Below, one piece after another: positions 3,786 to 62,384 of a stretch of 64,000 nt of DNA (position 1 is its first letter; each line of letters begins with the position of its first letter). The notes beneath the pieces are model-generated. The model was not told the DNA's origin. It worked only from the letters and a program-made list of their open reading frames with translations, and did not search any database. The translations under genes and the position numbers were made by a program. Source of the stretch: Acidimicrobiales bacterium (GTDB lineage: Bacteria > Actinomycetota > Acidimicrobiia > Acidimicrobiales > JBOGIG01); the NCBI GenBank assembly GCA_050742455.1, contig JBOGIG010000004.1, forward strand, positions 96,613 to 160,612, written 5' to 3'.

Positions 3786-3821
3786 CCCCATAACCGTCGG
3801 CCTCCCCATAACCGTCGGGCC
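3786..3821. repeat. 18-bp tandem direct repeat x2, intergenic (ilvD 3' side / ilvB upstream)
   Basis: ccccataaccgtcggcct / ccccataaccgtcgggcc at 3786-3803 and 3804-3821. Confidence 0.8.
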
Positions 3822-3845
3822 GCCCCGTCCCGGGGGGGCAGGGGC

Positions 3846-5582
3846 TCAGGCTTGCGTGATGGCGCCGCGCTCGGCTCCGGTGACCAGGCGGGCGAACTTG
3901 GCCAAGGCCCCGGTGGCATAGCGCGGCGGAGGCGCTTTCCATCCCAGCCGGCGCCGGGCCAGTTCGTCCTCGTCCACGTCCAGCGCGATGGTGCGAGCCT
4001 CGACATCGACGATGATGCGATCACCATCGGCCACCAAGGCGATGGGGCCGGACTCGAAGGCTTCGGGAGCAACGTGGCCGATGCAGAACCCGTGCGTTCC
4101 CCCCGAGAACCGACCATCGGTGATCAGGGCACAGTCGGCTCCCCGGCCGGCTCCCTTCATAGCGCCCGTCACAGCCAGCATTTCGCGCATTCCCGGACCA
4201 CCCTTGGGACCCTCATAGCGGATGACGACCACGCTGCCCGGCTCGATGCCGCCGGCGAGGATCACCTCCATGGCCGCGTCCTCCCCGTCGAAGACCCGGG
4301 CCGGGCCGTCGAAGTTCGGTTGGTCGATACCGGCCACCTTGACCACCGCACCCTTGGGGGCCAAAGAGCCGGTCAGCACCGCAATCCCGCCGTCGACATG
4401 GATGGGATCGGCCATGGAATGAACTACTTCGCCGTCGGGCCCGGGGGGGTCCAGGTCGGCCAGGTTCTCCGCCATGGTGCGGCCGGTAACGGTGAGGCAG
4501 TCCCCGTCGATCAGGCCGGCCGACAGAAGTTCCCTGAGCACCACCGGGACGCCTCCGATCCGATCCAGGTCGCTCATGTGGTACTTGCCGTGGGGCTTGG
4601 TGTCGGCCAGATGGGGAACCCGTCTTCCCACCTTGTTGAAGTCATTCAACTCCAGCTCCACCCTGGCCTCGTTGGCCAGGGCCAGAAGGTGCAAGACGGC
4701 GTTGGTAGACCCCCCGAGGGCCATGACGATGGCGATGGCATTCTCGAAGGCCGCCCGGGTCATGATCTGGCGAGGTCGCAGGCCGGTGGCCAGCAGTCCC
4801 ATTACCGCTTCGCCGCTCGCCCGAGCGAAGGCGTCCCGCCGCTGATCGGGGGCAGGCGGCGAAGAGCTCCCCGGGAGGGCCATGCCGATTGCCTCGGCTA
4901 CAGAAGCCATGGTGTTGGCCGTGAACATCCCAGCGCAGCTCCCGATGGTCGGACAGGCGTGGGTCTCGATGAGGGCGAGCTCGGCATCGCTCAGCGCCCC
5001 GGTGGCATGTGCCCCGACCGCCTCGAACACGCTCGTGATGTCGAGTGCCCTCTCGGCCCGCCCGGTCTCGGGATCGGCAGGCAGACGCCCGGGCAGGATC
5101 GAACCCCCGTAGAGGAACACGCTGGGCAGGTCCAGGCGGGCCGCAGCCATCAGCATCCCGGGCAGGGACTTGTCGCATCCGGCCAGGCACACCAGGGCAT
5201 CGAAGCGTTCGGCGTGCATCATGATCTCCACCGAATCGGCGATGATCTCCCGGCTGACCAACGACGCCCGCATGCCCTCGTGGCCCATGGAAATGCCGTC
5301 GGAGATGGCGATCGTCACGAATTCGATGGGGAAGCCACCGGCATCGCGCACCCCTTGCTTGGCCTCTTTCGCCAGGCGAGCCAAAGGCATGTTGCACGGT
5401 GTCACCTCGTTCCACGAGGAGGCCACCCCAACCTGGGATTTGCCCCAGTCATCGTCTCCCATCCCGGTGGCCCGCAGCATCGCCCGAGCCGGGGCCCGCC
5501 GAGGGCCGTCGGTGACTTCACGACTACGCGGCTTGGTATCAGGTAGCAAACCGGGATCCGGGGTTGGAGGTGTGGCGGCCAT
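3846..5582 (-). CDS. ilvD: Dihydroxy-acid dehydratase
   Basis: The C-terminal 578 aa of the 751-aa ORF are IlvD-like ([30 protein letters not shown]). Start set at ATG 5582 (MAATPPT...). The longer ORF would run through the divergent gene at 5605. Confidence 0.96.
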
Positions 5583-5604
5583 CGACAAAGCGTAACCTGG
5601 TGCA

Positions 5605-6681: not shown

Positions 6682-6804
6682 GCAAAACTCTCCCCTACTA
6701 GGAGTTCGTGGGCTTCTACGCCAACCTCTCGCCCCGCTGTGCACGAGCCACGGTCAAGTAGTACAAATCTATTGGTGGTCTCCGGCGAAGGATTGGATGG
6801 GCCC

Positions 6805-8691: not shown

Positions 8692-8692
8692 C

Positions 8693-10204
8693 TCAGGCCA
8701 CTGCTCCCCCGGCCTCGCGCCTCAGGGCTTCGTTGACCAGTTTCCCATTGGCCCGCCCGCTGGTGGCCTTCATTACCTGTCCCACCAGGAAACCGGTCAC
8801 CTGCGCCTCACCGGTCCTGAAACGTTCCCACTCGGACGGGTGGGCGGCGATCACCGCGGCCACCGCATCATCGAGTGAGGCGTCGCTGAGCGCCTCGAAG
8901 CCCCTGGCCCGAGCGATGTCAGCCGGGTCCCCCCCCGATTCCAACATGACCGAGAGCACATCCTTGGCCTGGGTCGGGCTCAGGGCGCCGCTGACCTCCA
9001 TGTTCACCAGGGCGGCAAATTGCTTGGGCTCCAACCGGCTCGCTCCATCGGCGTTGGCCGCAGCCTCGTTGGCCGCCCGGTTGAGGGTCACCCGGGCGTC
9101 GGCCCCAGCTGCTGTGGCGTCCAGAACCAGTTGATCCAGGCCCAGATCCACGACGGTCGCCACCTGGGAACGGGTCTTGTGGTCCAGCCCGGCAGTGTCG
9201 CCATCACCTCGGAGTGTTGCTGTCACCAGGGCCCGGCGCTCGGCCGGCATCGGTCCCAGGTCGACCAGGGACCGCTGTTGGAAGGCCTCATCGGGGACCA
9301 GAGGGACCAGGTCCGGCTCGGGAAAGTACCGGTAGTCGTAGGCCTCCTCCTTGGACCGCATGGCCGAGGTGACACCGGCCGCCTCGTCCCAGTGCCGGGT
9401 CTGTTGGGCAATCGCCTCACCGCCCTGGAGCAGTTCCGCCTGGCGGGCGGCCTCGTACTCGATGGCCCGGCCCAGACTGCGTAGCGAATTCATGTTCTTG
9501 ATCTCGCAGCGGGTCCCGAACTCGGTCTCGCCTGCCCTGCGCATGGACACGTTCGCATCGACGCGGAGCGACCCCTCTTCCATCTTGCCGTCCGAGGCAC
9601 CGGTGGCGACCAGGATCGAGCGCAACTCGCTTACGTAGGCCCGGGCGTCGGCGGCCGAGCGCAAATCAGGGGCACTGACGATCTCGACCAGGGGAACTCC
9701 GGCTCGGTTGTAGTCCACCAGGGAGTGGGTCGCGCCGCTTATGCGTCCATCTCCCCCCATGTGAGAAGTCTTTCCCGTGTCCTCTTCCATGTGAGCCCGC
9801 TCAATGCGGATTCGGCGCCCATCGAGGAGTTCCAGCCATCCGTTTACATTGATGGGCTCGTCGTACTGGCTGATCTGGTAGTCCTTGGGCATGTCGGGAT
9901 AGAAGTAGTTCTTGCGATGGAACACAGAAGGACGCACCTCGCAGTGCAGGGCGTGGCCGATCCTCACCGCCAGCTCCACCGCCCGGGCATTGAGAACAGG
10001 CAGGGAGCCGGGCAGGCCCAGGCATACCGGGCACACATTGGTGTTGGGTGGCGAGCCGAATTGATTGGCACAGGAGCAGAAAAGTTTGGTGGCGGTAGCG
10101 AGCTCGCAGTGCACCTCCAGACCGATCACCATCTCCCAACCCTCCCCGGAGTTGGGTGCCTCGCTGGAGTTGGGATCCTCCCTGGAACTGATGTCCCCGC
10201 TCAT
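8693..10204 (-). CDS. gatB: Asp/Glu-tRNA amidotransferase subunit B
   Basis: 503 aa with [20 protein letters not shown] and a GatB/YqeY C-terminus. ATGA start/stop overlap with gatA. Confidence 0.96.
10148..10201. repeat. Degenerate 18-bp tandem repeat (about 3 units) in the gatB N-terminal codons
   Basis: Units ggagttgggtgcctcgct / ggagttgggatcctccct / ggaactgatgtccccgct. They encode ...[12 protein letters not shown]... in GatB. Confidence 0.55.
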
Positions 10205-11658: not shown

Positions 11659-11683
11659 AACGAAGTCGGTAGGACTCGTTGTC

Positions 11684-11986
11684 TCACTGAGGCCCGGCCC
11701 CGATGCGCGGTACGGAAAAGCGGTCGCTCTCCACACAAGGGGCCTGGCCCAACACTTCCGAGCGGTCCAAACCGGGGCGGGGGCGGTCGGCCCGCAGGAC
11801 ATTGTGCACCGGTAGAGGGTGGGCGGTGGGGGTAACGCCGGCGGTGTCGAGACCGGCAACGTCGGCGGCATGATCGAGCACGGCGCCAAGTTGCGCGGCG
11901 TAGATCTCGAGTTCCTCGGGGGGAATGTCCAGGCGAGCCAGCTTGGCCACGTGAGCCACGTCGGCTGCGGTGATCCGAGGCGCCAT
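11684..11986 (-). CDS. gatC: Asp/Glu-tRNA amidotransferase subunit C
   Basis: 100 aa. [35 protein letters not shown] is GatC-like. First gene of the gatCAB order. Confidence 0.9.
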
Positions 11987-12047
11987 CAGGGTTTACCTAG
12001 GGGACAGGCGGCCGGCGCCGTCAGGGAAGTCACCTCCAGATCGTATG

Positions 12048-12785
12048 TCAGGCCGGCACTGGCTCAAACCGGACCAGCATCTTGTCGATCCTGTCCTGTT
12101 CCAGCACTGTGACGTTGGGGTCCAACCTGCGCACAGCCGCCACCAAGGCCATCACTGCCCGAGCCTCGTCTGAGGCCACCGCCCCCAGGAAACGGCGCAG
12201 GAACAGACCTCGTCCGGCTCCGGCTACAGCCCGATTCAACCAATTGCCGGGAAGCTGTGAGGTGGCCATGATGAGCCAGGTCTGTGCCACATCGGCTCCG
12301 GGAGGACCCGCGCCGGCGTTGGTCCAGTCGATGACCATCGGCCCGGCCTGGGTCATCATGACATTGCCCGGATGCAGGTCGAGATGCAACAGGGCATCAC
12401 CGGGACCGAAGGGCCGAGGCATGCCGGGTGGGGCCGGAATGTGACTCAGCTGCTCGTGGAGACGAGCCAGGATTCGAGGCAGGGCGCCGATCTCCCACGG
12501 CCTGGACCCGACCCGATCGAGCATCGTCGGGCCGTGAACGAATTCCATGACCATATCGGTGCCCTCCTGGGCCACGACCTGGGGAACGGGAAAGCCATGG
12601 CTACGGGCGTAGATCATGACCTCGGCCTCCCGCTTGACCAGTTCCTGGACCCGGGGATCTTGGGGCTCGTTGGTGCGGAATCGACGCAGAACGTGGTCAG
12701 CCCCGTACTGGTAGACGTCAGCGCTGCGCCCCGATCCGACCAATGGTCCGACCCGCCCAGGGTCAGGGACTTCGAAGTCAGTCAT
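12048..12785 (-). CDS. Phosphotransferase (aminoglycoside/choline-kinase-like, APH family) protein
   Basis: 245 aa. Brenner-type catalytic loop LHLDLHPGNVMM followed by VIDWTNAG. Confidence 0.8.
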   Translation of the reverse strand: MTDFEVPDPGRVGPLVGSGRSADVYQYGADHVLRRFRTNEPQDPRVQELVKREAEVMIYARSHGFPVPQVVAQEGTDMVMEFVHGPTMLDRVGSRPWEIGALPRILARLHEQLSHIPAPPGMPRPFGPGDALLHLDLHPGNVMMTQAGPMVIDWTNAGAGPPGADVAQTWLIMATSQLPGNWLNRAVAGAGRGLFLRRFLGAVASDEARAVMALVAAVRRLDPNVTVLEQDRIDKMLVRFEPVPA

Positions 12786-12793
12786 CGGCGCCG

Positions 12794-13240: not shown

Positions 13241-13243
13241 CCG

Positions 13244-16452: not shown

Positions 16453-16475
16453 GGTGCTATCGGGCCAGAAGGTAG

Positions 16476-17564: not shown

Positions 17565-17667
17565 GTGATATTCCTTTCGCCGGCGCCTTCACCGAACCAT
17601 GGCAGGCACTTGACCCGCCGGTCAAGCCGGCCCGGCAGCCAAGCCCGGTCGTCGACCGGATGGTCGG

Positions 17668-17688
17668 GAATCAGATGACGTAGAGGAA

Positions 17689-17703
<15 letters not shown>
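17668..17703. repeat. Perfect 18-bp tandem duplication spanning the kinase stop codon
   Basis: gaatcagatgacgtagag x2 (17668-17685 and 17686-17703). In gene orientation it reads ...LYVI* F LYVI*. Confidence 0.9.
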
Positions 17704-19752
<2,049 letters not shown>

Positions 19753-19761: not shown

Positions 19762-23057
<3,296 letters not shown>

Positions 23058-24357: not shown

Positions 24358-24921
24358 TCAGGGCTTGGCCACCATGAGGAAGAAGGCCCCCACGTAGATC
24401 AGATCCACCACGGCCACCGCCCTCGACAACCGGGTGGCCATCTGGGGCAGTACTCCGATATCGGCCGAACCGACGGACTGGGGGGATCGAGCCAGGTCGG
24501 CCAGCAGGCCCTGAAGGCAGGCCTCCCCGGGCCACACAACCCACTCCAATATGGCGGCGGCCAGCACGAAAAGAACCAGTCCGGACCAAACCCAGGGGTC
24601 CTTGAGGCTATATGCCGACGAACTCGTGGCCAATAGGGCGAAGCCAAGAAGGGGCACAAGCCACACCGAGCGGGCCACCAGATTGGGCCCGGGCCGGAAA
24701 AAGGCCACCACTCCGGCCCCGAGCCCCTCGCCAGCCGATCCAGCCGATCCAGCCGATCCAGCCGATCCAGCCGAAGAACTAACCTGCCTACCTTGCCTGC
24801 CTGCTGAAGCGGCGTATTGGCCGGTGACGGCCACCGCACCGAAGCCGAGGATACCGGCCACCACATGGGCGATCAGGATTACCTCGTAGGCGACCGACGA
24901 CGTTCCGAGGGCCCCAGTCAC
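24358..24921 (-). CDS. Integral membrane protein (4 predicted hydrophobic segments), function unknown
   Basis: 187 aa with hydrophobic helices and a loop containing (SAG)n. Confidence 0.6.
   Translation of the reverse strand: MTGALGTSSVAYEVILIAHVVAGILGFGAVAVTGQYAASAGRQGRQVSSSAGSAGSAGSAGSAGEGLGAGVVAFFRPGPNLVARSVWLVPLLGFALLATSSSAYSLKDPWVWSGLVLFVLAAAILEWVVWPGEACLQGLLADLARSPQSVGSADIGVLPQMATRLSRAVAVVDLIYVGAFFLMVAKP
24733..24773. repeat. 9-bp tandem repeat x4 plus a partial unit inside the membrane-protein gene (encodes SAGSAGSAGSAG)
   Basis: agccgatcc x4 (24733-24768), then agccg. Confidence 0.9.
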
Positions 24922-31168: not shown

Positions 31169-33027
31169 CGCTTCGCCCCGGGGTAGCGGTCGATGCTGAG
31201 AATGTGGGCCGGTTGAACCGCCGGATCGAGGCTCACATAGGGGTGGCTGCCCTGCCAGTCAAAAGCCCCGCCGCCCAGTTCGTCGCGGACCGTGTACCGC
31301 TCCTCGGGGTCCAGTCCGAGAACGCCTCGGTCAAGGTCCAACACGGCCTCCTGGACGCGATCGGGATCAAGGTTGACCACGATCAGCACCGTGTCAGGCC
31401 CCATCGTGTCAGGCCCCATCGTGTCAGGCCTCAGCACCGTGTCAGACGGGGCGGATTCGTGTTTGGAATACACCAACAAAGCCGGGTTGGGGCTGTGGTG
31501 GAAGGTAACGTTCGAAATGCGATCAAAGACGCGATGGCGGCGGCGGATGGCGTTGACACAGGCGATAAAACCGGCCAGCGAGGCCGGGGCCGACCAATCT
31601 CTGGCCTTTATTTCGTACTTTTCCGAGTTGAGGTACTCCTCGTTGGCCTCGTCTGCCGGCTGATTCTCTCCCAGTTCGTAGCCGGAGTAGATCCCGTAGG
31701 AGGGCGAGAGAGTGGCAGCCAGCACCAGGCGCAGGCGGAAGGCCGAGATGGCGCCATGGCGCAGCACTCCGGCCAGGATGTCGGGGGTGTTGGGCCAAAA
31801 GTTCGGCCGCATGAAATCGGCGGTGGGCCCGTAGGCCAGTTCTTGGACGTAGTCCTTCAGCTCGTCGGCACTGTGACGCCAGGTGAAGTAGGTATAGCTC
31901 TGAGAAAACCCCACTTCGGCCAGCTTGGCCATGACCTTGGGTCGGGTGAAGGCTTCGGCCAGCAGGACCACATCAGGGTGTTCGGCCATCAGGTCGGCTA
32001 TCAGCCACTGCCAGAAGGCCATGGGCTTGGTATGGGGGTTGTCGACCCGGAAGATCTTCACCCCCTTGTTCACCCAGAACTCCAAGATGTCCCGGCACGC
32101 CTGCCACAGGGCCACCCGGTCACTGTCAAGCTCAGGCCAGAAGTTGATGGGGAAGATGTCCTGGTACTTCTTGGGGGGATTCTCGGCATAGGCAATGGTG
32201 CCGTCGGTCCGGTGCCAGTACCACTCAGGGTGCTCGCTCACCCACGGGTGATCGGGCGACGTCTGCAGGGCGAAGTCCAGCGCCACCTGAAGCCCTAGGC
32301 GATCGGCCTCGGCCACGAACCGGTCCAGGTCGTCGAAGGTCCCGAGATCGGGGTGAATGGCGGTATGGCCTCCGGCCGCGCTCCCGATGGCCCAGGGACT
32401 GCCCGGATCCCCGGACCTGGCCTTGAGGGTGTTGCCCGGTCCCTTGCGGGCGGTGCTGCCAATGGGATGGATGGGGGGGAGGTAGACCACGTCAAAGCCC
32501 ATGTCGGCAATGTGGCCCAGCCTGGCCACCGATCCAGCCAGACCGCCTTCCGAGCGTGGAAAGAACTCATACCACGCCCCCCGGGTGGCCAACGGCGGAT
32601 CGACCCTCAAGGCCATCGGCGCCGAAACGGTCAGATCTGCACGGTGGGCGGCCCCGGTACCCTGGTCTGGCCGACCAGGCCCCGTCGGAGCCTTCGAGGC
32701 CCTAGCGGGCGGGGCCGGGAATCTGACCAGATCGCCAACGGCGAACTCCGCGGTCCAGGCCTGGACCACGAATTCGTAAAGACCCACCTGGTCACAGGTG
32801 ATAACCCCCCGCCATGTGTCGTTTCCCGCCTCCACCATTGCGACCTCTTGCCACTCGACTCGCCGCCCTCGCCTGCGCCAGCGGACCGACGCAGCGAGAC
32901 GGTCGTGTCCGTCCTTGTAGATATCGGCCGAAACGGTGACAGGCTCTCCCTGGCAGGCCTTGGCCGGGCCCGCTCCCGAGGGAGTGGCCGGGCGAATCCG
33001 GTCTATGACCACGTGTCCAGTCACCAC
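31165..33027 (-). CDS. glgE: Alpha-1,4-glucan:maltose-1-phosphate maltosyltransferase
   Basis: 620 aa. GlgE-like (WYEFFPRS, VYLPPIHPIG, FRVDNPHTKP). GTG start at 33027. Confidence 0.93.
   Translation of the reverse strand: MVTGHVVIDRIRPATPSGAGPAKACQGEPVTVSADIYKDGHDRLAASVRWRRRGRRVEWQEVAMVEAGNDTWRGVITCDQVGLYEFVVQAWTAEFAVGDLVRFPAPPARASKAPTGPGRPDQGTGAAHRADLTVSAPMALRVDPPLATRGAWYEFFPRSEGGLAGSVARLGHIADMGFDVVYLPPIHPIGSTARKGPGNTLKARSGDPGSPWAIGSAAGGHTAIHPDLGTFDDLDRFVAEADRLGLQVALDFALQTSPDHPWVSEHPEWYWHRTDGTIAYAENPPKKYQDIFPINFWPELDSDRVALWQACRDILEFWVNKGVKIFRVDNPHTKPMAFWQWLIADLMAEHPDVVLLAEAFTRPKVMAKLAEVGFSQSYTYFTWRHSADELKDYVQELAYGPTADFMRPNFWPNTPDILAGVLRHGAISAFRLRLVLAATLSPSYGIYSGYELGENQPADEANEEYLNSEKYEIKARDWSAPASLAGFIACVNAIRRRHRVFDRISNVTFHHSPNPALLVYSKHESAPSDTVLRPDTMGPDTMGPDTVLIVVNLDPDRVQEAVLDLDRGVLGLDPEERYTVRDELGGGAFDWQGSHPYVSLDPAVQPAHILSIDRYPGAKR
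31391..31446. repeat. 15-bp tandem repeat inside glgE (encodes PDTMG PDTMG PDTV)
   Basis: gtgtcaggccccatc x2 (31391-31420), followed by the related gtgtcaggcctcagcaccgtgtcaga. Confidence 0.85.
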
Positions 33028-36548: not shown

Positions 36549-36589
36549 AGTCACCTGGCAGTTACATCGCAGTCACCTGGCAGTTACAT
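36549..36589. repeat. Tandem duplication (period 22 bp, 19-bp identical core) spanning the meaB stop codon
   Basis: agtcacctggcagttacat at 36549-36567 and again at 36571-36589, separated by cgc. The meaB TAA lies at 36586..36584. Confidence 0.85.
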
Positions 36590-37654
36590 GGCACCGCCAC
36601 CGTCCTGTCCGGCGCCTTCGGCGACGCTCCTTACGATTTGGCCGGCGGCACGATAGGGATCGAGCCGGCGAGCCATCATCTCCAGGCGGCGGGACTCGAA
36701 TGCCGGACCATCCCACACCCCGAGCGCCCTCTGCTCGAGCAGGCGAATGACGATGCGACGAAGCTCGTCTTCCAGGCGCTTGGCCCGGCGCAGTTCCAAT
36801 GCCCCCGATTCATTGTTGTACAGGCGATGGCGGACGATCTCGGCCCACAACTCGGCCGGTCCCTCATCGTCGGAGGCCACGGTGCGCACGATGGGGGGGC
36901 GCCAGTCCCCCATCAGGGACAGATCCAACATCGACTTCAGGTCCCTCTCGGTCTGGCGCACCCCGGGTCGATCGGCCTTGTTGATCACGAAGATGTCGGC
37001 TATCTCCATGAGGCCTGCCTTGTTGGCCTGCACGGAGTCGCCCCATCCAGGCGTGACCACCACCACGGTGGTGTCGGCGGCTCCGGCCACTTCTACTTCG
37101 ACCTGTCCCACTCCCACCGTTTCCACCAGAACCACAGGAAATCCGACGGCATCGAGGAGTCGGATCGCCTCGGGAACGGCCAGGCTCAGACCTCCGAGGT
37201 GCCCCCGGGTGGCCATGGAACGGATGTACACCCCCTGATCGGTGGCGTGGTCAGCCATGCGCACCCGGTCACCAAGGATTGCTCCGCCCGAGAACGGCGA
37301 CGACGGGTCTACAGCCACGACGGCCACCTGCCCCTCGGTCCGCGCCTGGCTGATGAGGCAGTCGGTCAGGGTTGACTTGCCCGCTCCCGGCGCCCCTGTC
37401 ATCCCTATGGTGTAGGCCCCTCCTCCGAGGGGGTATGCCAGTTCCCCAATCCGACGGGCACGGGGTCCACCCCTCTCCACCCAGGACAGCAGGCGAGCCA
37501 AACTGGCCCGCCGGCCGGCCGCCGCCGACTCGAACAGGTCGACGATCGAGCTTGTGGACGAACCTGTCGTCGATCCATCGACCAAGGTGTCCCTGGCGCC
37601 ATCGATCCCCCCAACAACCGGGCCTTCAGCCCGTTCGACCTCAGGCTCCGACAT
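36584..37654 (-). CDS. meaB: Methylmalonyl-CoA mutase-associated G3E GTPase (MeaB/ArgK)
   Basis: P-loop GMTGAPGAGKST and NKAD specificity motif. Start set at ATG 37654, overlapping the murA 3' end by 14 nt. Confidence 0.9.
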   Translation of the reverse strand: MSEPEVERAEGPVVGGIDGARDTLVDGSTTGSSTSSIVDLFESAAAGRRASLARLLSWVERGGPRARRIGELAYPLGGGAYTIGMTGAPGAGKSTLTDCLISQARTEGQVAVVAVDPSSPFSGGAILGDRVRMADHATDQGVYIRSMATRGHLGGLSLAVPEAIRLLDAVGFPVVLVETVGVGQVEVEVAGAADTTVVVVTPGWGDSVQANKAGLMEIADIFVINKADRPGVRQTERDLKSMLDLSLMGDWRPPIVRTVASDDEGPAELWAEIVRHRLYNNESGALELRRAKRLEDELRRIVIRLLEQRALGVWDGPAFESRRLEMMARRLDPYRAAGQIVRSVAEGAGQDGGGAM

Positions 37655-39020: not shown

Positions 39021-40991
39021 TCAACTGCCTCGGCTGGGGACGTCAGCGTGGCCCTGGCCGCCACCGACGTTACCGGGGAGGCCGGCCAGGAATGCCTCCA
39101 TACGTTCCAGCTCGTCGACGATGGTGGCAGGGCGCTTCCAACCATGGCCCTCGCCGGGATAGACCACCAGTTCGACCCGTCCCCCGGCGTCCCTCACGGC
39201 CCGGGCCAGGGCCTGGGATTGCTCCAGGGGGACCACGGGATCCTCGGAGCCATGAAGGATCAGCAATGGGGCGGTTATCAGTTGGGCAAAATGCAGGGGT
39301 GATCGGTCCCGGTACACGTCCGCTGCTTGCGGGAGGGGTCCGATGAGGGAGTCGGTGTAATGGGCCTCAAAGCGGTGAGTCCGGGCACGAAGGTCCATGA
39401 GGTCGGCCACCCCGTACAGGTCGATCCCCGCAGCGCACAGCTCAGGATGGTGAGCCATCAGGCTGAGCACGGTCAGGCCGCCCGAGGATCCCCCGACGGG
39501 GACCATGCTCCCGGGTAGGGCCCAGTTCCGCTCCAGAGCGGCGCGCATCCCCCCGGCGGTGTCAGCCACGTCCAAGTCACCCCACCGATGGGTCAGGGAC
39601 TGGGTATAGCGCCGACCCCACCCCGAAGAGCCCCGATGGTCGGGGGCCAGCACCGACCAGCCCCTCTCCAGGAAGTAGGCCAGTCGGGGATTGAACGTCA
39701 CCTGCATCTGTCCCGTTGGGCCACCGTGGAGCCACACCAGCAGCGGGGCCGGATCGTCGCCTCGGGCCCGGTACAGGCGGCCGTGGACCACACCCAGGGA
39801 CGTGCTGGCCGGTGGATCGGATACGGCTGACGGATCGGATACGGCTGACGGATCGGGAGTCACCTCTGCTTCCCATTCCACCAACTCGGGCTCGACCAAC
39901 CCGGCCCCTTCGAAGCCCCCAACCGGTCCTCGAACGACTGGGCGTCGGTGGCGGGTGGCCACATCCAGGACAAAGACCTGAGTCGGTGTAACCGCTCCCG
40001 ATCTCAATCCGGCCAGGTGCGATCCGACCCACGACAATGCGCCGTGCACCCCCCGACCGAGCTCGGTTATCTCTCCATTGTCAAGGGGGGCCAGGCACAG
40101 CCGGCCGAAACCGCCCTCGTTGCGAGCCAGGGCCACCGCCAAAGAGTCGGGCGACCAGGCAAAACTTCTCTGGCCCCCGCCCCAAGTCGGTTCGGCGTGT
40201 TCGAACGCCTCTGCCACAACTGGCCTGGGAGCGGTGGCGCCGCTGCGGTCTGCCACCCAGACATTGGCCCAGCCCCCCGCATCACAGATGTAGGCCAGGT
40301 ATGACCCGTCGGGGGAGTAGCGCGGCTGGCCCAGGCTTTTGCCCGGCCCCCCGGCCGCAATCCACCCCTCTCCTGGTCTGGGATTGTCGCCGTCGGACAA
40401 AAAAGGGGCGACTCGTATGAGACTGGAGTCCCACGCCATGTCGGGGGCGTCCCACTCGTGCCAGGCCAGCTCGGCGCCGTCGGGCGACCATACCGGATCT
40501 AGAGCGAACCGGCCCGAGGACACCTCGGGAGGAGATATAACGGCCGGGCCGGAAACGTGCCCGGAGGTCGATCCGGTCGATACCACTACGACCGATCGAG
40601 TGGCCGCCACGAAGGCCACCCATGCCCCGTCGGGCGACACCGCAGGACACGAAGCATCAAGCGGTTCGGTCAGGGGCCGCGACGGTCCTCCCTCGGCGCG
40701 GACCTCGTGCAGGGCGCCGTCCTGGCCCACATAGATCAGGCCGGTCCCGTCCGGGTACCAGTCGGCAACGGCGCCGGACAATCCATGGGTTCCCACCGGC
40801 GCTGGGTCAGTGGCCACAATGGTTTCCGGCCCTCCTTCAGTGTCAATGACAGCCAGGTAGTTGGTTCCCCCCCAACCCACCAAATAGGCCACGCGGCGCC
40901 CTTCTGGGGAAAGCCGGGGGTCGCCGATGGTCCGTCCCGCCCCGCACATCAAAGCGGTAATGCGCCGACCGCGGGTCATGGCCAACAACAT
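39021..40991 (-). CDS. S9 family serine peptidase (beta-propeller plus alpha/beta hydrolase)
   Basis: C-terminal catalytic domain with HGGPTGQ, nucleophile GGSSGG and ILHGSEDPVVP. The N-terminal half is propeller-like. Confidence 0.88.
   Translation of the reverse strand: MLLAMTRGRRITALMCGAGRTIGDPRLSPEGRRVAYLVGWGGTNYLAVIDTEGGPETIVATDPAPVGTHGLSGAVADWYPDGTGLIYVGQDGALHEVRAEGGPSRPLTEPLDASCPAVSPDGAWVAFVAATRSVVVVSTGSTSGHVSGPAVISPPEVSSGRFALDPVWSPDGAELAWHEWDAPDMAWDSSLIRVAPFLSDGDNPRPGEGWIAAGGPGKSLGQPRYSPDGSYLAYICDAGGWANVWVADRSGATAPRPVVAEAFEHAEPTWGGGQRSFAWSPDSLAVALARNEGGFGRLCLAPLDNGEITELGRGVHGALSWVGSHLAGLRSGAVTPTQVFVLDVATRHRRPVVRGPVGGFEGAGLVEPELVEWEAEVTPDPSAVSDPSAVSDPPASTSLGVVHGRLYRARGDDPAPLLVWLHGGPTGQMQVTFNPRLAYFLERGWSVLAPDHRGSSGWGRRYTQSLTHRWGDLDVADTAGGMRAALERNWALPGSMVPVGGSSGGLTVLSLMAHHPELCAAGIDLYGVADLMDLRARTHRFEAHYTDSLIGPLPQAADVYRDRSPLHFAQLITAPLLILHGSEDPVVPLEQSQALARAVRDAGGRVELVVYPGEGHGWKRPATIVDELERMEAFLAGLPGNVGGGQGHADVPSRGS
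39814..39858. repeat. 18-bp tandem repeat (2.5 units) inside the S9 peptidase gene (encodes DPSAVS DPSAVS DP)
   Basis: ggatcggatacggctgac x2 (39814-39849), then ggatcggga. Confidence 0.9.
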
Positions 40992-42020: not shown

Positions 42021-42074
42021 CCGCGCCCGCCCAAGTCACCCGGGCTCAGTCGCCCAGCCCTGCGTCGACCAGCC

Positions 42075-44633
42075 TCAGTCGACCAGGGCCTCTCCGTACA
42101 TTTCGGCCCGATCCCGACCGGCGTCCTTGGCCCGGTACACGGCCTGGTCGGCTCTGCGGATCAATTCGTCGGGGCCGTCGGCATAATCGACGGCCACGGC
42201 CACGCCGATGGACACGGTGACCGATACCGGGGCCGCCCCCGCCACCAGGTCAAAGGGGCGGGCAATGACTTCGCCCAGGCGCTTGGCCAGACCCATGGCA
42301 TCGCCGGGCGAGCGCACCTGTTCGCACAGGACCAGGAACTCGTCCCCACCAAAGCGCGCCGCCGTATCCGACTGACGCAGGCAACGGGTGATTCGTTCCG
42401 CCGCCTCGGCCAGCAACGAGTCCCCCACCGAGTGCCCGAAAGCATCATTGACAGCCTTGAATCCGTCCAGGTCCAAGAACAGCACGCCGACCCTAGTCCC
42501 CTGCCGCTTGGCCCGGTCTTGAGCCGCTTCGACCCGAGCGGCAAAGACAGTGCGGTTCACCAATCCGGTCAGGGGGTCGTGGCTGGCCCGGTAGGAAAGC
42601 TCGTCCTGGACCAGCGCCCGCTCCAATGCAACCGCAGCCAGGCGGGTCATGCGGTCCAAGAAGCGCACTTCGTAATCGGGCGGGGGGTCCTCGTCGGCAT
42701 TAACCACGACGATGGCCCCCACCGCCTCTTGGGGACCGTCCCGGCCGTCACCGGTCTGTACCGGTAGTGCCCAGAAGTTCGACCAGCCATAGGCAGTGGC
42801 GGCCAGATCACCGGCTGGCAGGGCGTTGCGGACAAAGCCACCCTGGGCGATGGCCTGGGCCGCGCAAGCCGAGGCCAGGTGATCGGGAATCTTGCCTTGA
42901 CCGGGAGCCAATGAAGCCGCACGACGCGAGGAACGCCCTGTCAGCGGTTGCTCCTCGGACAAGACGATGGCACACACCGAGTTGTACAACTGGCTCTCGA
43001 CCATCTCCGACAGCTTGAAGAGGACCGCTTCGAGGGCATCTCCAGAAGTGATGCTGCCCATGACTTCGGCCACGGCGCCGGACATGTCCCCGTCCCGCTT
43101 GGACTCGGTGATGTCCCGGCAGGAAAATGCCACACCGGCCACGTCAGGATCGTCGAGCAGGTTGACGGCCAAAGATTCGATGTAGCGGGAGGAACCATCG
43201 GCATGGCACAGCCTCAACACCTCCCGAACCGACGGCCCGCCCGGAGCTGCGACGATCTGTGCCATCCATCGGTGGGCAAGATCTCTGTCGTCGGCATTTA
43301 CGATCTCGATCCAATCTTCACCGACGATCTCGTGGTCCGGCCTGCCAAGAGTCTCGAATACGGCGGGACTGGCATACTGCACTATGCCGTCGCCCCTCAC
43401 GATCAGGACCATGTCGTAGAGATTCTCCACCAGCGAGGAAAATCGTCGCTCAGCGAACTGACGGCGGCCTTCTGCCTCGACTAGGGCCGTGACATCTCTG
43501 AGAGTAAAGGTGAGGCCACCAACCGCCGGATCATCAAGCATGTTTACGCCGGCCCCATCGATCAGGCGCCACCCCCCGTGGTTGTCGGAAACCCGGAAAC
43601 TGAAGTTGAGGGCCGCCCCCGGTGTGGCCCGCAGCTGCTCCACCATGTCGGCCAGGTCGGCCAGGTCGTCGGCATGAACGAAGCGGGCATGGGGGAACCG
43701 GTCGATCTCGTCGGGGTTCCAGCCGAACACGGTGGCGGCTGATGGGCTGATATAGGTCGGCCTGCCGCTTTCATCTACGATGACGATAACGTCGGAAATG
43801 TTCTGGACCAGGGCCTTGAACCGCGAGTCCTGGTGGGCCAAGGACTCCTCTATGGCGGCCTGGTCGGAGATGTCTCGGATGACCAGGACCACGCCGTCGA
43901 CAAATGGGTCGTCGGCCAGCAGGGTGCCGGTTATCAGGCACGTTCGCCAGTTGCCATCCTTATCCAGGGCACGGCAGCGCAGCGCCCTGGCCCGTCCGGG
44001 ACGCTCGAAGCACCAGGAGAGTATGTCGTTGACCAACGCAAGGTCGTCGGGATGGACGAAGGACGAGAGATCCCGGGTGGTGACGTCGTCAGTCGTCCAC
44101 CCGAACACCCTCTCGACCGAGGGACTGGAATAGGTCAACTTGGAGTCCCGGCCCAGGACCATGATCACATCGGAGATGTTCTCCACCAGCGACTGGTTGC
44201 GCCCTTCCCGGAGGGTTAGCTCCTCTTGGGTGGTCAGCCGAAGGGTGGCGTCCTCGGCCAGCACGACGATGACCGGCTCGGCCCCGCCGGCCAGCACCCC
44301 CACGCTGGTCTGTACCGGCAGCCAACTGGCGTCCGGCCGCAAATATCGGACATCCTGGATGAAATGGGTCAAATCACCCGAAATGAGTTGATCCAACAGG
44401 CGCCTATTTTCAGCAATATCATCAGGATGGACCAGATCAATCAAGCCACATCCCAGTAATTGCTCCAAGCTATAGCCGACCAGGTGGCAAAAGGCATCGT
44501 TGGCCGAGACAATGCGGCCATCGATGCTGGTAGTGGCTACTCCCAGGCTGATGCGGGCAAAAACCACCCCCAGCATCTCCCCTAAGAAGCCGTCGCCAAG
44601 GCCGGACTGGCCCTGGCGGTCGAATTGGCTCAT
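42075..44633 (-). CDS. Sensor diguanylate cyclase (multiple PAS, GAF-like region, GGDEF)
   Basis: 852 aa. Repeated PAS-like segments. C-terminal GGDEF domain with RQSD-TAARF-GGDEF, i.e. an I-site RxxD five residues before GGDEF. Confidence 0.9.
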   Translation of the reverse strand: MSQFDRQGQSGLGDGFLGEMLGVVFARISLGVATTSIDGRIVSANDAFCHLVGYSLEQLLGCGLIDLVHPDDIAENRRLLDQLISGDLTHFIQDVRYLRPDASWLPVQTSVGVLAGGAEPVIVVLAEDATLRLTTQEELTLREGRNQSLVENISDVIMVLGRDSKLTYSSPSVERVFGWTTDDVTTRDLSSFVHPDDLALVNDILSWCFERPGRARALRCRALDKDGNWRTCLITGTLLADDPFVDGVVLVIRDISDQAAIEESLAHQDSRFKALVQNISDVIVIVDESGRPTYISPSAATVFGWNPDEIDRFPHARFVHADDLADLADMVEQLRATPGAALNFSFRVSDNHGGWRLIDGAGVNMLDDPAVGGLTFTLRDVTALVEAEGRRQFAERRFSSLVENLYDMVLIVRGDGIVQYASPAVFETLGRPDHEIVGEDWIEIVNADDRDLAHRWMAQIVAAPGGPSVREVLRLCHADGSSRYIESLAVNLLDDPDVAGVAFSCRDITESKRDGDMSGAVAEVMGSITSGDALEAVLFKLSEMVESQLYNSVCAIVLSEEQPLTGRSSRRAASLAPGQGKIPDHLASACAAQAIAQGGFVRNALPAGDLAATAYGWSNFWALPVQTGDGRDGPQEAVGAIVVVNADEDPPPDYEVRFLDRMTRLAAVALERALVQDELSYRASHDPLTGLVNRTVFAARVEAAQDRAKRQGTRVGVLFLDLDGFKAVNDAFGHSVGDSLLAEAAERITRCLRQSDTAARFGGDEFLVLCEQVRSPGDAMGLAKRLGEVIARPFDLVAGAAPVSVTVSIGVAVAVDYADGPDELIRRADQAVYRAKDAGRDRAEMYGEALVD

Positions 44634-45874: not shown

Positions 45875-45946
45875 CCAGATCAGACCGACGCGGCAGATCA
45901 GACCGGCGAGTCAGATCAGATCGGCGAGTCAGATCAGACCGACGAG
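45875..45946. repeat. 18-bp tandem repeat x4 starting in the last atpC codons and extending into the spacer
   Basis: Units cagatcagaccgacgcgg / cagatcagaccggcgagt / cagatcagatcggcgagt / cagatcagaccgacgagg. On the gene strand every unit carries an in-frame TGA (SSV* SD SPI* SD SPV* SA ASV*). Confidence 0.9.
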
Positions 45947-46331
45947 GCGGCATCGATGCGGGCCTGGGCCCGAGCTCGGGCCTGTTCGATCTCCTCTTCC
46001 TCGCCCTCCACCTCGGGCGATGCGTCCAACGCCGTCATCCGGGCCCGGGCCCGGCCGACGTCGATCTCGCCGGACAGCTCGGCCACTTCGGCCATGACCG
46101 CCAGGCGACCTGCGTCCATGCGGACGAACCCACCATGCACGGCAGCGCGCTCCTCGGATCCATCCTCCTTGATGAACCGCACCACGCTTGGGACCAATTG
46201 GGCAACGAAGGGGGCATGGTTGGCCAAAAAGGCCGACTCCCCCTCCACGGTGCGAAGAGCGACCATCTCGGTTTCGCCTTCGAAAAGCACACGCTCAGGA
46301 GTCACCAGCTCGGAGGCAAAGGTGGCCGCCA

Positions 46332-50331: not shown

Positions 50332-51336
50332 TTAATTGGGTTCCTTTGCTTTGCCGGTCGCCCCTTCGGGGCCCAAAAGATGTTCTCGCAACTGATCGAG
50401 GCGGTGGCGGGCGCTGGCATCGATAACCACGTCTCCGACCTCGACCACAACTCCCCCGAGCAGCGCTGGGTCGATGGTGACCTGGAGTTCGGTGGGCAGG
50501 CCCGACAGGAGTTGCAGGGCCGCTGCCAGGCTGGACCGCTCCTCCGGTCCGATCTCTTCGGCCGCCTGGACCCTGGCCACCCTCCAGCCCCGAGCCTCGG
50601 CCACCTGTTCGGCCAGGAAGTCAAGGGACCCGACTACATCGCGGGCCCGACTCCTCAGGGCCTCGCATACCAATGCCAGCGTGGCATCGGCGACCTTGCC
50701 GGCCAGGAGACCCCGGACCAGATCCTGGCGGTCGGCCAGAGATCGGCCCGTCTCCGACAGCGCTTGGCACAGGGAAGCATCAGCCTCGACGATCCGAGCG
50801 AAGCGAAATAGCTCGTCCTCCACTTCGTCGAGCTGGGACTTGTGAGGCAGGGCCTCCAATACCGCGGCGGCGTAGCCGGCCATCATGGCCCGGGCCATCG
50901 ACCGGCCCGGTGATCTCTCGTCGAGCCCATGACCGGTCTCGGCCATGTGCCGAGCCAGCTCGGCCACCCCGTGGATGGACTCCCCGAAGGAGCCCGGCCT
51001 TTCCCGAGACACGATACGCACCAACAGGCGCAATCCAGACGCCGAGATCTTGGCGGCGAAAAGATCCTCGACCACCGAGCGTCGGCTGGCACCCGTAAGT
51101 GAATTGTCCCCCAGCCCCGTTGCCAGACCGTCGCTGGTGGTCCACAGGTGGGCCAGGTGGGCCAGCTCGTCGGCCAACTCGGACAGGGAGCCGACCTCTG
51201 GTTCGGTCAGGTCGCCACCGGGCGCCGATGACCCAGACCCTGTCGATGGACCAGACCCCGTCGATGGCCCAGATCCCAAAGGCGAACCTACCCCGTCCAT
51301 TACGGCGGTGGCGTATCCGGCCAAGTCCGGGTTCAC
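50332..51336 (-). CDS. atpH: F1 ATP synthase subunit delta (OSCP) with duplicated N-terminal domain
   Basis: C-terminus is delta-like (IDPALLGGVVVEVGDVVIDASARHRLDQL). Two consecutive copies of the delta N-domain pattern begin at LAGYATAVMDG... and MAGYAAAVLEA... Start is uncertain: GTG 51336 avoids overlap with atpF, while the track ATG 51450 overlaps it by 77 nt. Confidence 0.8.
   Translation of the reverse strand: MNPDLAGYATAVMDGVGSPLGSGPSTGSGPSTGSGSSAPGGDLTEPEVGSLSELADELAHLAHLWTTSDGLATGLGDNSLTGASRRSVVEDLFAAKISASGLRLLVRIVSRERPGSFGESIHGVAELARHMAETGHGLDERSPGRSMARAMMAGYAAAVLEALPHKSQLDEVEDELFRFARIVEADASLCQALSETGRSLADRQDLVRGLLAGKVADATLALVCEALRSRARDVVGSLDFLAEQVAEARGWRVARVQAAEEIGPEERSSLAAALQLLSGLPTELQVTIDPALLGGVVVEVGDVVIDASARHRLDQLREHLLGPEGATGKAKEPN
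51233..51276. repeat. 18-bp tandem repeat (about 2.5 units) inside atpH (encodes GSGPST GSGPST GS)
   Basis: ccagaccctgtcgatgga / ccagaccccgtcgatggc / ccagatccc... Confidence 0.85.
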
Positions 51337-51373
51337 TGCCGGCTCATCGAGATCGGGCGCAAGCCTGGCAAGG

Positions 51374-51895
51374 TCAGCCTCGCTCTGCCGGCGTTGCTGC
51401 CCGTAGGGCGGCCACTGCTTCGTCGATGAGGTCACGATGACCGGCGGCATCGACCTCGCGACCTATGACTCGAGCGGCGGCCGCCAGGACCAGGGTTCCG
51501 ACTTGTGTCGTGATCTCATCGGTGGCCCTTTGGCGGGCCAGTGAGATCTCGGCTTGGGCCCCGCCCACCAGGCGTTCGTACTCCGCCTGTCCGCGAGCCT
51601 GGCCTTCGATGCGCACCGTCTCGGCCGTCTGGTTGGCCTGTGCCGTTATCTCCCGGGCGTGGGTCCGGGCCTCGTCCAAGATGGCTTGGCGTTGGGCCTT
51701 GGTGTCATCGGCCTCCGCCCGCGCCGCATCGGCCGCGGCCAACGAGGAGCGGATCAGTTCCTGTCGGTCGTTCATGGCTTTGTTGATGGGGGGCAGGATT
51801 ACCTTGGCCACGACTATCAGGACAATCACAAAGGCAATGATCTCGATGATGAAGGTGCCGTTGGGGACCAAGAAGTTGCTTGTGGCGATGAACAT
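51374..51895 (-). CDS. atpF: Fo ATP synthase subunit b
   Basis: 173 aa. A single N-terminal TM helix followed by a long Ala/Arg/Glu-rich helix. Confidence 0.9.
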   Translation of the reverse strand: MFIATSNFLVPNGTFIIEIIAFVIVLIVVAKVILPPINKAMNDRQELIRSSLAAADAARAEADDTKAQRQAILDEARTHAREITAQANQTAETVRIEGQARGQAEYERLVGGAQAEISLARQRATDEITTQVGTLVLAAAARVIGREVDAAGHRDLIDEAVAALRAATPAERG

Positions 51896-53763: not shown

Positions 53764-53865
53764 TCCCCACCTCGTTACCTGACGAAGAGGCACCCAACAC
53801 GGCGGTCATCATGGCATCGCCGGATCGACCAGCGCAAAACGAGAAAGGGCATCTCAGCTCGGCGA

Positions 53866-56358: not shown

Positions 56359-56367
56359 TTCCTTATT

Positions 56368-58914: not shown

Positions 58915-59000
58915 CCGGCCCAGGCTACCGGCCCCCTGGGCCGTCCCGTCCGTGTCCTGTGCGCAGGCGCCCCGGCCAGCCGAAAGGGGCAGGCAGGCGA

Positions 59001-59963: not shown

Positions 59964-60048
59964 AGGCTCACCGCCCCAGTGCCGGCCTACCAAGCTCGAC
60001 AGCCTGGCCGCGGCCAGGCTGTCGGATCGGATCTGTTGCAGAGCGCGA

Positions 60049-60270
60049 TTACTTCGTCGAGGGCGTCCCGGGGCGTCGGCCGTAACGGCGCTCGAAGCGC
60101 TCCACCCGCCCCCCGGTGTCGACCAGCTTCTGCTTGCCGGTGTAAAAGGGGTGGCACTCGTTGCACAGCTCGACATGCAGGTCCTGCTTGGTCGAGCGAG
60201 TGGTGAAGGTGCTTCCGCAGGAACAGCGCACCGAGGCTTCGGTGTAGTTGGGGTGGATGTCGGTCTTCAT
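60049..60270 (-). CDS. rpmE: 50S ribosomal protein L31 (Zn-ribbon type)
   Basis: [47 protein letters not shown]. The CxC...CxxC pattern and the HPFYTG motif are present. Confidence 0.95.
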
Positions 60271-60347
60271 GGCTCTCCTATTATATGGACGCCTGGTCCT
60301 GTCCAGACTTTGGGGACCCGCAGCCTTCGATCCCGGACGGATCACGC

Positions 60348-62384
60348 TCAGACTCCGGGCCCCTTGGCGATCTCGGCCAGAAAGTCCTCGTTGCCCGCCG
60401 TAGTCTTGATCTTGTCCATGAGCAGCTCCAACCCGGCTGCCGCCGTGCCCTCGCTGCCCAGGGCGCTAAGGACCCGGCGCAATTTCCATACCTGGGCCAG
60501 CTGGGAGCGATCGAACAACAGCTCCTCGTGGCGGGTGGAGCTGGCATTGACGTCAATGGCCGGGTAGATACGCCGCTCGGCCAGGCGACGGTCCAGACGA
60601 AGTTCCATGTTGCCCGTGCCCTTGAACTCCTCGAAGATGACCTCGTCCATGCGGCTACCGGTCTCCACTAGGGCAGTGGCGAGGATGGTGAGAGAACCAC
60701 CTTCTTCGATGTTGCGAGCGGAACCGAAGAACTTCTTTGGCGGGTAAAGAGCGCCGGAATCCACCCCGCCGGACATGATGCGCCCAGTGGCCGGTTGGGC
60801 CAGGTTGTAGGCCCGGGCCAGGCGGGTAATCCCGTCCAGGACTATGACCACATCGCGGCCCTGCTCCACTAGTCGCTTGGCTCTTTCGATGGCGAGTTCG
60901 GCCACCAGGGTGTGCTCCTCCGATGGTCGGTCGAAGGTCGAGGCGATGACCTCGCCCTTGACCGATCGCCTCATGTCGGTGACTTCCTCGGGGCGCTCAT
61001 CGACCAACAGGACCATGAGATGGACGTCGGGATTGTTGGCTTCGATTGAGTGGGCAATCTGCTTGAGGACGGTGGTCTTTCCCGCCTTGGGGGGGGAAAC
61101 GATAAGCCCTCGCTGACCCTTGCCAATGGGAGATAGCAGATCGACGATCCTGGCCGTCATGTTGGCCGAATCGCCAGGGACTTCGAGACTGAGGCGCGAG
61201 TCGGGGAACAAGGGGGTCAGGTCCTCGAATCGGGGTCGGCTCTTGGCGTCCTCGATTGACATGGAGTTGACACTGTCAATGCGCAGCATGGCTGGGTAGC
61301 GTTCGCTGGCCCCCGCCGGCCTGCACTCCCCCACCAGGTAATCGCCCTTGCGCAGGGCAAAGCGGCGCACCTGGCTGATGGAAATGTAGACGTCGTTGGC
61401 GTTGGGCAGGAAACCCTTGGTCCGCAAGAACCCGTAACCCTCGTCCCTCAGGTCCAAGAGTCCCTCGACGGCCACCGGCTCGCCCTGGAATGCGGCTTCG
61501 GCGCCGGCGCCCTGCAGATCACGATCGCCGCCCCCGCCGCCCGGGCTGTTACCGCCCCCCGAGGACCGATCTCGGCCCCGACGCCGCCGATTCTTCCGAT
61601 TGCCCGGTTCCACCGAACCCTCGAAATTGCCCGCCTGGTTGTTGCGTTGGCCACCGGCCGTCTGCCCCTGGCTCTGATTGGATCCCTGGTTCTGATTGGA
61701 TCCCTGGTTCTGATTGCGCTGGCTGGGCCCACTCTGGCGTCCGTTGCCGGAACGTCCCCCACCCTGAACCTGATGGGTATCGGGCGACGACGGCGATCCA
61801 TTCGCTCCACCGGCGCCGCCCCCATCCAACCCGTCCCGGACCAGTTCGGCGGCGGCGTTGGAACCGGCCTTTCCGGCCTCTACGCCGTTAGACGGGGCAG
61901 GAGCCCTCACCGGCCGATCGTTACCCGATAACCCTGCAGGCATGGTTGCCTGCGACTCCGGATCCTTTGCGCCGTTCAACGACGAACCCGGTGAAGAGAT
62001 CCCGCCACCAAGAAGGGAAGGCGGATCGATACTGGCTTGCGGCTCAGATCCAACTTTGGCCTCACCATGGCCATCCCCGTCGGCGCCGGCCCGACCGTTC
62101 AGGATTGTTCCATCCTGGCCGGTCCCGTCCTCGGTGGCTTTGGCCTTGGACACTCGGGGTTTGCGCGTCCGAGCCGGCGTGACGGGCGGCTCTGATGCCG
62201 TCGCAACGCTTCCCCCGTCTTCGTGAACCGGATGTACCCCCGTGGCTAGCAAGATCTGATCGATGATGTCAGCCTTCTTGGCCCGGGCTCCGGGTTTGAG
62301 GGCCATGGCCCCGGCAATGGCGTGTAGTTCATCACGCTCTTTGGATTCGAGAACCGATCGTTCGATCTGTGGTTCTGCGCTCAC
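60348..62384 (-). CDS. rho: Transcription termination factor Rho with a long Gly/Asn/Gln/Ser-rich N-terminal insertion
   Basis: Walker A PPKAGKT. RNA-binding and ATPase domains are Rho-like. Start set at GTG 62384 ([24 protein letters not shown]) with GAGG upstream. The track ORF starts at 62408. Confidence 0.95.
61664..61720. repeat. 18-bp tandem repeat (about 3 units) inside the rho insertion (encodes [16 protein letters not shown])
   Basis: ctgattggatccctggtt x2 (61673-61708), with related flanking partial units. Confidence 0.85.

Follow-up and report, generated by a model that had tools for sequence, protein, structure and literature searches.

Strain-variable tandem duplications and an excess of 18-bp repeat units in 64 kb of an uncultured Acidimicrobiales genome

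Tandem arrays in the window and their variation between strains

The 64,000-nt stretch analysed here (contig JBOGIG010000004.1 of assembly GCA_050742455.1, positions 96,613 to 160,612, hereafter the window) comes from an uncultured member of the Acidimicrobiales and carries many short head-to-tail duplications, most often with an 18-bp unit. These arrays are likely ordinary small variable-number tandem repeat (VNTR) or minisatellite loci, produced by slippage duplication and filtered by selection, with an added excess of units of 18–19 nt. The phenomenon is well known in kind and is found here in a new uncultured lineage; the sharp 18-bp excess is its one unusual feature. Tandem Repeats Finder (TRF), with arrays counted non-overlapping at a score of at least 50, retrieved 13 arrays from the window; as the chance control, 100 shuffles of it that preserved the dinucleotides gave 0.42 arrays on average and 2 at most. 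Head-to-tail direct repeats with units above ~6 bp, in numbers beyond chance, are what defines VNTR or minisatellite loci.

Copy number differs between near-identical strains. Contigs 18 and 52 of GCA_973994725.1 jointly span all 64 kb at ~99.9% identity to the window, and fragments of GCA_050744925.1 and of the Logan assembly of SRR27067709 match it as well. Over the whole 64 kb, the only multi-base insertions or deletions between the window and GCA_973994725.1 fall in arrays: in the latter, the rho array has two extra units (+36 bp, L085), the ilvD–ilvB spacer has one more 19-bp unit, reading GGGGCGGCCCGACGGTTAT x3.5 (+20 bp in total, L083) and the 9-bp array has one unit less (-9 bp, L169), while the spacer of GCA_050744925.1 (L084) is the same as that of the window. 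Copy number thus differs in 3 of the 13 arrays, the strain variation expected of VNTRs, and is equal in the others, including the glgE array (unchanged in L170); the array across the meaB stop is the same in L001. Since three changes in 13 arrays go with a nucleotide divergence of only ~0.1%, we infer that length changes per array are a few hundred times as frequent as substitutions per site, which is typical of small VNTRs. The first-pass annotation had called the duplication process active and recent, and this is borne out by the three differences at ~99.9% identity and by the absence of five arrays from a sister species (described below). Its suggestion that the arrays would serve as ready-made strain markers for this uncultured Acidimicrobiales population follows from the same polymorphism.

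The arrays also explain where short-read assemblies of the population break. Two short-read contigs (L086 and that of the partial Rho P0002) end within the rho array, and a contig of GCA_050744925.1 (L084) ends within an 18-bp array just beyond the window (L083:13997). Such contig ends point to arrays of differing length in the populations that were sampled, although they are no proof of it. A break is also seen at the end of atpF and the start of atpH: contig 52 of GCA_973994725.1 stops exactly at 51338, as does one contig of GCA_050744925.1, and contig 18 of the former begins at 51478. The 141-bp overlap (51338–51478), ~60 bp from the 18-bp array of atpH, is thus where both of these independent assemblies are interrupted.

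All twelve duplications listed by the first-pass annotation were recovered by TRF, with coordinates off by a few bases at most. TRF also agrees with it on a period of 18 bp for eight arrays, although one of these, in the ilvD–ilvB spacer, has a true unit of 19 bp; the statement that 22 bp was the only unit not divisible by three was wrong for the same reason, the 19-bp unit likewise lying in non-coding sequence. The units differ in sequence from locus to locus and show no kinship with one another. The arrays are listed below, together with three minor ones and with the TRF period; a second range is given where the TRF call differs. The remaining TRF row, of period 14 at 42045–42086, is treated separately.

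3782..3826 (TRF period 18, with 3% indels): ilvD–ilvB spacer array, intergenic; true unit 19 bp, present in the window as 19 + 18 + partial copy
10141..10201 (TRF 10141-10186, period 18): gatB array, degenerate 18 bp, ~2.6–3.3 copies, 82% matches; GatB residues 2–22, adjoining the gatA stop
17667..17704 (TRF period 18): pknB stop array, exact 18-bp duplication of 2 copies + 2 nt across the pknB stop (NLYVI-stop, FLYVI-stop)
18689..18760 (TRF 18689-18753, period 18): pknB linker array, 18 bp, 3.6–4 copies, (TTVLGD)x4, between the kinase and PASTA domains
21742..21771: minor array, 15 bp x2.0, 86%, within ligA
21896..22000 (TRF 21896-21998, period 30): mnmA/ligA array, 30 bp x3.4 at the junction of mnmA stop and ligA start; LigA N-terminal extension or 5' leader
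24731..24774 (TRF period 9): (SAG)5 array, 9 bp x4.9, in a loop of a DUF2269 membrane protein; strain-variable
31390..31446 (TRF 31390-31430, period 15): glgE array, 15 bp, 2.7 exact copies and a degenerate copy; PDTMG repeats forming a loop insertion within the C-terminal domain of GlgE
36549..36593 (TRF period 22): meaB stop array, 22-bp duplication of 2.0 copies, 95%, across the meaB stop codon
39814..39858 (TRF 39814-39856, period 18): S9 peptidase array, exact 18-bp duplication of 2 copies + 7 nt, (DPSAVS)x2, in the linker between propeller and catalytic domain
43643..43668: minor array, 9 bp x2.9, 94%, within the PAS-GGDEF gene
45875..45948 (TRF 45876-45948, period 18): atpC stop array, 18 bp x4.1, 87%, beginning at the atpC stop; TGA in every unit
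51145..51165: minor array, 9 bp x2.3, 100%, within atpH
51233..51277 (TRF period 18): atpH array, 18 bp x2.5, 88%, (GSGPST) repeats in the N-terminal extension of AtpH (delta subunit)
61664..61720 (TRF 61666-61716, period 18): rho array, 18 bp x2.8–3.2, (NQNQGS) repeats in an N-terminal insertion of Rho; strain-variable

The 19 + 18 arrangement of the ilvD–ilvB spacer reflects a 1-nt deletion in the copy of the window. The 14-bp row at 42045–42086 was rejected as a duplication: it is an inverted repeat (GGCCCTGGTCGAC...GTCGACGCAGGGC) across the stop of the PAS-GGDEF gene, between the convergent PAS-GGDEF and glpX genes, with a DNA fold of -15.5 kcal/mol (z = -4.2). This hairpin is probably a terminator shared by the two genes.

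Unit-length spectrum and the 18-bp excess

Exact duplications of at least two copies were counted without a score threshold and set against 2.37 Mb of relatives. At 12, 15, 18, 21 and 24 bp the relatives hold 29, 18, 10, 1 and 5 exact arrays, and the window holds 0, 1, 5, 0 and 0, the five being those of its 18-bp arrays in which at least two copies are exact. Exact duplications of 18 bp thus stand ~18-fold above background (5 in 64 kb as against 0.27 expected, Poisson P = 9e-6), while exact arrays of other periods of at least 12 bp occur at the background rate (2 as against 2.0 expected); the shift in the unit-length spectrum alone, between window and relatives, has P = 4e-4. The earlier claim that 18 bp is the commonest unit is therefore statistically supported within the window. 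Units of 18–19 nt are also present at frame-neutral places, namely the pknB stop, the atpC stop and the 19-bp spacer. A contig of an Acidimicrobiaceae metagenome-assembled genome (DAHWOV010000047.1, L010) contains, over 21 kb, five 18-bp arrays with no more than one mismatch, where 0.23 are expected (corrected P ~6e-4), and may share the cause of the bias. It is the most repeat-rich of the relatives, with 15 TRF arrays in those 21 kb, 7 of them of period 18, and also holds a 12-bp x9.8 and a 24-bp x4 array. On this evidence we lean towards the 18–19-nt preference being a true property of the lineage and indicating that misalignment favours a certain length.

Several observations weigh against that reading. 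The window was chosen for its pattern, so that the nominal P values overstate the case. Beyond the window, 24.1 kb of contig CDAOJQ010000018.1 from the same species have a single 18-bp array (L083:13997, x2.6), a number compatible with the background rate and with the window rate alike; the other arrays there are 15-bp x20 and 9-bp x5.8, and in the mce operon of the species, also outside the window, no arrays of 18 bp were found. In ~26 kb of the sister species there is no 18-bp array, the units being 30, 30 and 12 bp, and the indels between the window and the sister-species loci have no peak at six amino acids: 2 of 59 internal gaps have this length, and neither is recognizable as a duplication. 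The density of arrays is not exceptional either. At a TRF score of at least 50 the window has 2.0 arrays per 10 kb, as compared with 1.69 for the atp loci of Acidimicrobiia (0.71 Mb) and 1.75 for other Actinomycetota (0.70 Mb), which is ordinary for high-GC Actinomycetota. With strict filters (at least 85% matches, score at least 60) the values are 1.72 as against 0.73 and 0.60, and for exact duplications of at least 12 bp they are 1.09 as against 0.32–0.41, so that the window is ~2–3-fold richer in young arrays. A density typical of related genomes, which the first-pass annotation, if joined to a genome-wide lack of an 18-bp excess, would have held against its own reading, is seen at the lax threshold and gives way to an excess of only 2–3-fold under the strict ones. 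No literature on an 18-bp preference in Actinobacteria was found. In sum, the 18-bp excess is supported in the window and has so far not been replicated genome-wide or in the sister species.

It is accordingly conceivable, although we consider it rather unlikely, that these are ordinary VNTRs whose clustering at 18 bp is sampling noise combined with ascertainment, a striking window having been flagged and two-copy arrays shorter than ~15 bp being hard to see. The scarcity of 18-bp arrays outside the window and their absence from the sister species speak for this explanation, and one of the eight 18-bp arrays is in fact a 19-bp array. Moreover, the mode of score-thresholded TRF calls lies at 15–18 bp in the relatives too (18 bp in 11 of 52 and 8 of 42 arrays) and even in the shuffles (9 of 42). 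This is because ~15 bp are needed for a two-copy array to be seen while frequency falls with length, and the detection effect accounts for part of the 18-bp mode. Short direct repeats at a lag of 18 are also not in excess outside the arrays. What speaks for a true preference is the threshold-free count, in which the exact duplications of the relatives fall steadily from 12 to 21 bp and those of the window do not; the probabilities for spectrum and rate given above, with L083:13997 not yet counted; and the independent enrichment of L010.

The 15-bp x20 array (84% matches) lies at L083 18147–18662 on the minus strand, ~7 kb beyond the start of the window, and is the largest seen in the species. 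It sits in an open reading frame of 171 amino acids (aa) in which (A/V)KKAG repeats follow a hydrophobic N-terminus, and this Lys/Ala-rich tail resembles those of actinobacterial histone-like proteins.

Origin, survival and turnover of the arrays

We propose that an array would begin with strand misalignment, during replication or gap repair, between short direct repeats (DR) that lie a few to ~30 nt apart. The resulting two-copy arrays would then grow and shrink through slipped-strand mispairing, and purifying selection would purge nearly all of them, leaving those at gene junctions and those that keep the frame and fall in disordered linkers, loops or terminal extensions. The clean arrays close on a partial copy of 5–15 nt (7 nt in the array at 39814, 11 at 18689, 11 at 31390, 13 at 21896 and 8 at 24731), and in the 39814 array the 7-nt partial copy is followed by sequence that plainly bears no relation to the unit. 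Judged from their sequence, these terminal partial copies appear to be the DR-X-DR-X-DR signature of misalignment between short direct repeats. The first-pass annotation had proposed that the junctions be inspected for microhomology; the clean arrays are suggestive of it, whereas three stop-spanning ones (17667–17704, 36549–36593 and 45875–45948) end in a partial copy of at most 2 nt, so that microhomology would not be universal. Because of these three arrays a second route of origin is conceivable; near-integer copy numbers may also be due to chance (n = 3). In the sister species both the pknB stop (AACCTGTACGTGATCTGA) and the linker are single-copy, and its divergence (65–87% aa identity) is too great for the ancestral direct repeats to be read.

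The closest described process appears, by analogy, to be the microhomology-mediated tandem duplications (MTDs) of fission yeast, which arise de novo between short direct repeats, are frequent and reversible, are preferentially tolerated in essential genes when in frame, and favour long GC-rich microhomology (PMC8639346). Their spacing peak of 150 nt reflects a chromatin footprint, and in Escherichia coli MTDs were detected only 1/20 as often as in Schizosaccharomyces pombe (PMC8639346). Unlike the MTDs of fission yeast, which are subclonal, the events of the window occur in natural populations of bacteria, either fixed or as polymorphisms, and their preferred spacing is ~18 nt.

Tests for what might set this length (a spacing of the substrate, a hairpin or a shared motif) were all negative and gave no mechanism for an 18-nt ruler, a further point against a length preference. 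Direct 7–9-mers at a lag of 18 outside the arrays, which would have pointed to substrate spacing or to hidden decayed 18-bp arrays, are no commoner than those at lags of 21, 24 and 30. Hairpin or cruciform potential was likewise rejected, the DNA fold z-scores of all true arrays being between -1.2 and +1.2 and the 42045 row alone being a hairpin. No 4-mer is enriched among the units after correction, and GATC, which seemed enriched by eye, is common genome-wide (7.3 per kb). It is doubtful that a molecular ruler, in the form of the footprint of a protein or nucleic acid during replication or repair, sets an 18–19-nt register in this lineage and perhaps in other Acidimicrobiales such as that of L010. 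Displaced-flap or primer length, the footprint of a polymerase or clamp, and a turn of the RecA filament can be named as candidates by way of speculation; the RecA filament has a turn of ~18.6 nt, and its likeness to the 18-nt unit is numerology only. Actinomycetota are generally not known to have MutS/MutL-type repair, and this lineage is probably without it as well.

The effect of selection is clear from where the arrays survive, as the first-pass annotation had held. Every intragenic array is in frame with a unit divisible by three (by chance (1/3)^6 = 0.0014), and the units that are not (19 and 22 bp) are confined to non-coding sequence. Although ~95% of the window is coding by summed gene calls, gene junctions host 7 of the 13 arrays (P ~4e-4, with the junction target set generously). 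Four arrays span stop codons, where the protein is unaffected because the duplicated unit includes the stop codon itself. The copies of the atpC array lie downstream of the functional stop, there being a TGA in every unit (read-through frame SSV-stop-SDSPI-stop-SDSPV-stop-SAASV-stop). Within genes, the arrays lie outside the conserved domain cores of PknB, the S9 peptidase, AtpH, Rho, GatB, the DUF2269 protein and GlgE. In PknB, the Pkinase domain covers residues 18–284 and the array residues 331–355; in the S9 peptidase, the Peptidase_S9 domain covers 433–636 and the array 378–393; in AtpH, the OSCP domain covers 193–358 and the array 58–73. The match of GatB to its hidden Markov model begins at residue 22–23, after the array, and the GLGE_C match covers 104 residues of GlgE as against a profile of 87 positions.

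The turnover of the arrays can be followed in a sister species, represented by GCA_054607595.1 and GCA_054610475.1 (aa identity of 71% in Rho and 65% in PknB). At readable orthologous sites it is without five arrays of the window: those of gatB (its GatB of 488 aa has a 12-aa gap at the array position), the pknB stop, the pknB linker, ligA and the 9-bp (SAG)5 repeat. Its Rho has a degenerate NQ/GS-rich stretch where the window carries (NQNQGS) repeats. It has young arrays of its own in GCA_054607595.1 (L176 3825–3913, 7888–7931 and 10907–10974). The 12-bp x3.7 array lies across the mnmA stop and ligA start, a site where the window also has an array; an exact 30-bp x2.3 array lies in the PknB linker, a few codons upstream of a single TTVVG; and a 30-bp x2.9 array lies in the glgB/galT spacer. 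By this comparison the readable arrays of the window appear to be in the derived state, and the arrays and absences in the sister species therefore indicate fast turnover, with recurrence at at least two permissive sites of arrays with unrelated units. Other relatives are the source of a Logan contig from SRR30877833 (LeuA 87%) and the closest GTDB species representatives, with AtpD identities of only 82–86%. No strain-level relatives were found in the metagenomes of the Joint Genome Institute, where the best LigA match was 63% identical, and those loci were used as background only.

Three further explanations bear on slippage duplication itself. Positive selection could keep the arrays for a function, with hexapeptides tuning the length of linkers or repeats downstream of genes acting in regulation. 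Intragenic repeats are able to tune function in other organisms, and the recurrence of arrays at the same places in the sister species (the PknB linker and the mnmA/ligA junction) could be taken in this sense. At these shared places, however, unit sequences and lengths are unrelated between the two species, which indicates tolerance and not conserved function; several arrays lie wholly 3' of stop codons (atpC, pknB, meaB), and the arrays gave no structure signal and the window no Rfam match. We thus hold functional selection to be very improbable. Equally little is to be said for staggered double-strand cuts ~18 nt apart, made by a transposase or nuclease or left as a target-site duplication after excision of an element, and then filled in and rejoined. 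A sharply fixed length would follow from such cuts, and three junction arrays are indeed close to integer copy numbers (17667, 2 copies + 2 nt; 45876, 4.1; 36549, 2.0). Most arrays, on the other hand, have partial copies of 5–15 nt, which cuts do not predict, and are unlike target-site duplications in this respect. No motif is common to their units (P = 0.0013 for the best 4-mer, uncorrected for ~136 tests), no transposase family is among the gene calls of the window, where no search aimed at transposases was made, and the arrays of 3–5 copies and the polymorphism of two added units require slippage anyway.

The possibility that the arrays are artefacts of assembly or sequencing is slighter still. 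The data all come from metagenome assemblies, and contigs break at some arrays; against this, the same arrays are present in the independent assemblies GCA_973994725.1, GCA_050744925.1 and Logan SRR27067709, the intragenic ones are all in frame, and with lengths of 38–105 bp the arrays should fit within a typical short read. Their recurrence and size make an artefact unlikely, and slippage duplication filtered by selection is the reading that we retain.

Relation to known repeat systems and gene annotation

The arrays resemble the VNTR loci used for typing by multiple-locus VNTR analysis (MLVA), which include loci of 9, 15 and 18 bp in Mycobacterium and Yersinia: they are head-to-tail, have units of 9–30 bp in 2–5 copies, vary between strains and are in frame inside genes. 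Unlike the usual MLVA loci, they belong to an uncultured Acidimicrobiales host, their unit lengths are concentrated on 18 bp, and they are found across stop codons as well as within core housekeeping genes (rho, pknB, atpH, gatB). With the phase-variable simple-sequence contingency loci of the Moxon type they share a copy-number change driven by slippage; contingency loci, however, have units of 1–8 nt whose changes shift the frame or the promoter spacing and switch genes on or off, whereas here the intragenic units are divisible by three, the arrays at junctions leave the coding sequence untouched and the 19- and 22-bp units are outside it, so that the arrays do not belong to this class. Mycobacterial interspersed repetitive units (MIRUs) are likewise an actinobacterial VNTR class at gene junctions, but form a dispersed family of related elements of 40–100 bp, in contrast to the units of 9–30 bp without a shared motif in the window, which are therefore not MIRUs. 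If the 18-nt preference were true genome-wide, it would be a clean natural case of a length-specific mutational signature in bacteria and a handle on the geometry of misalignment; if a ruler existed, natural VNTR unit lengths would be a readout of replication or repair geometry in an organism that has not been cultured. As the evidence stands, the preference is a modest curiosity atop a well-known phenomenon.

The arrays also carry a warning for the annotation of gene ends, through duplicated stop codons and repeat-derived extensions. The gene models of ligA (19762–22011), gatB (8693–10204) and atpH (50332–51450) have such N-terminal extensions, and the first two exceed their counterparts in the sister species in length (749 as against 680 aa for LigA, 503 as against 488 aa for GatB). 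Judged from these models, the annotated starts of all three genes may be too far upstream. The 30-bp array of ligA is probably upstream of the true start codon, since the alignment of LigA homologues starts only at residue ~37–46 and the 680-aa LigA of the sister species is without that array.

Finally, the substitutions that separate the window from GCA_973994725.1 are clustered. Some 11 fall within ~180 bp at 11784–11966, in the gatC region, and ~7, together with a compensating pair of -1 and +1 indels, fall within ~90 bp at 12701–12791, near a gene for an APH-like protein of 245 aa, while the rest of the window has about one difference per 1–2 kb. These clusters could be recombination patches or could reflect local hypervariability.

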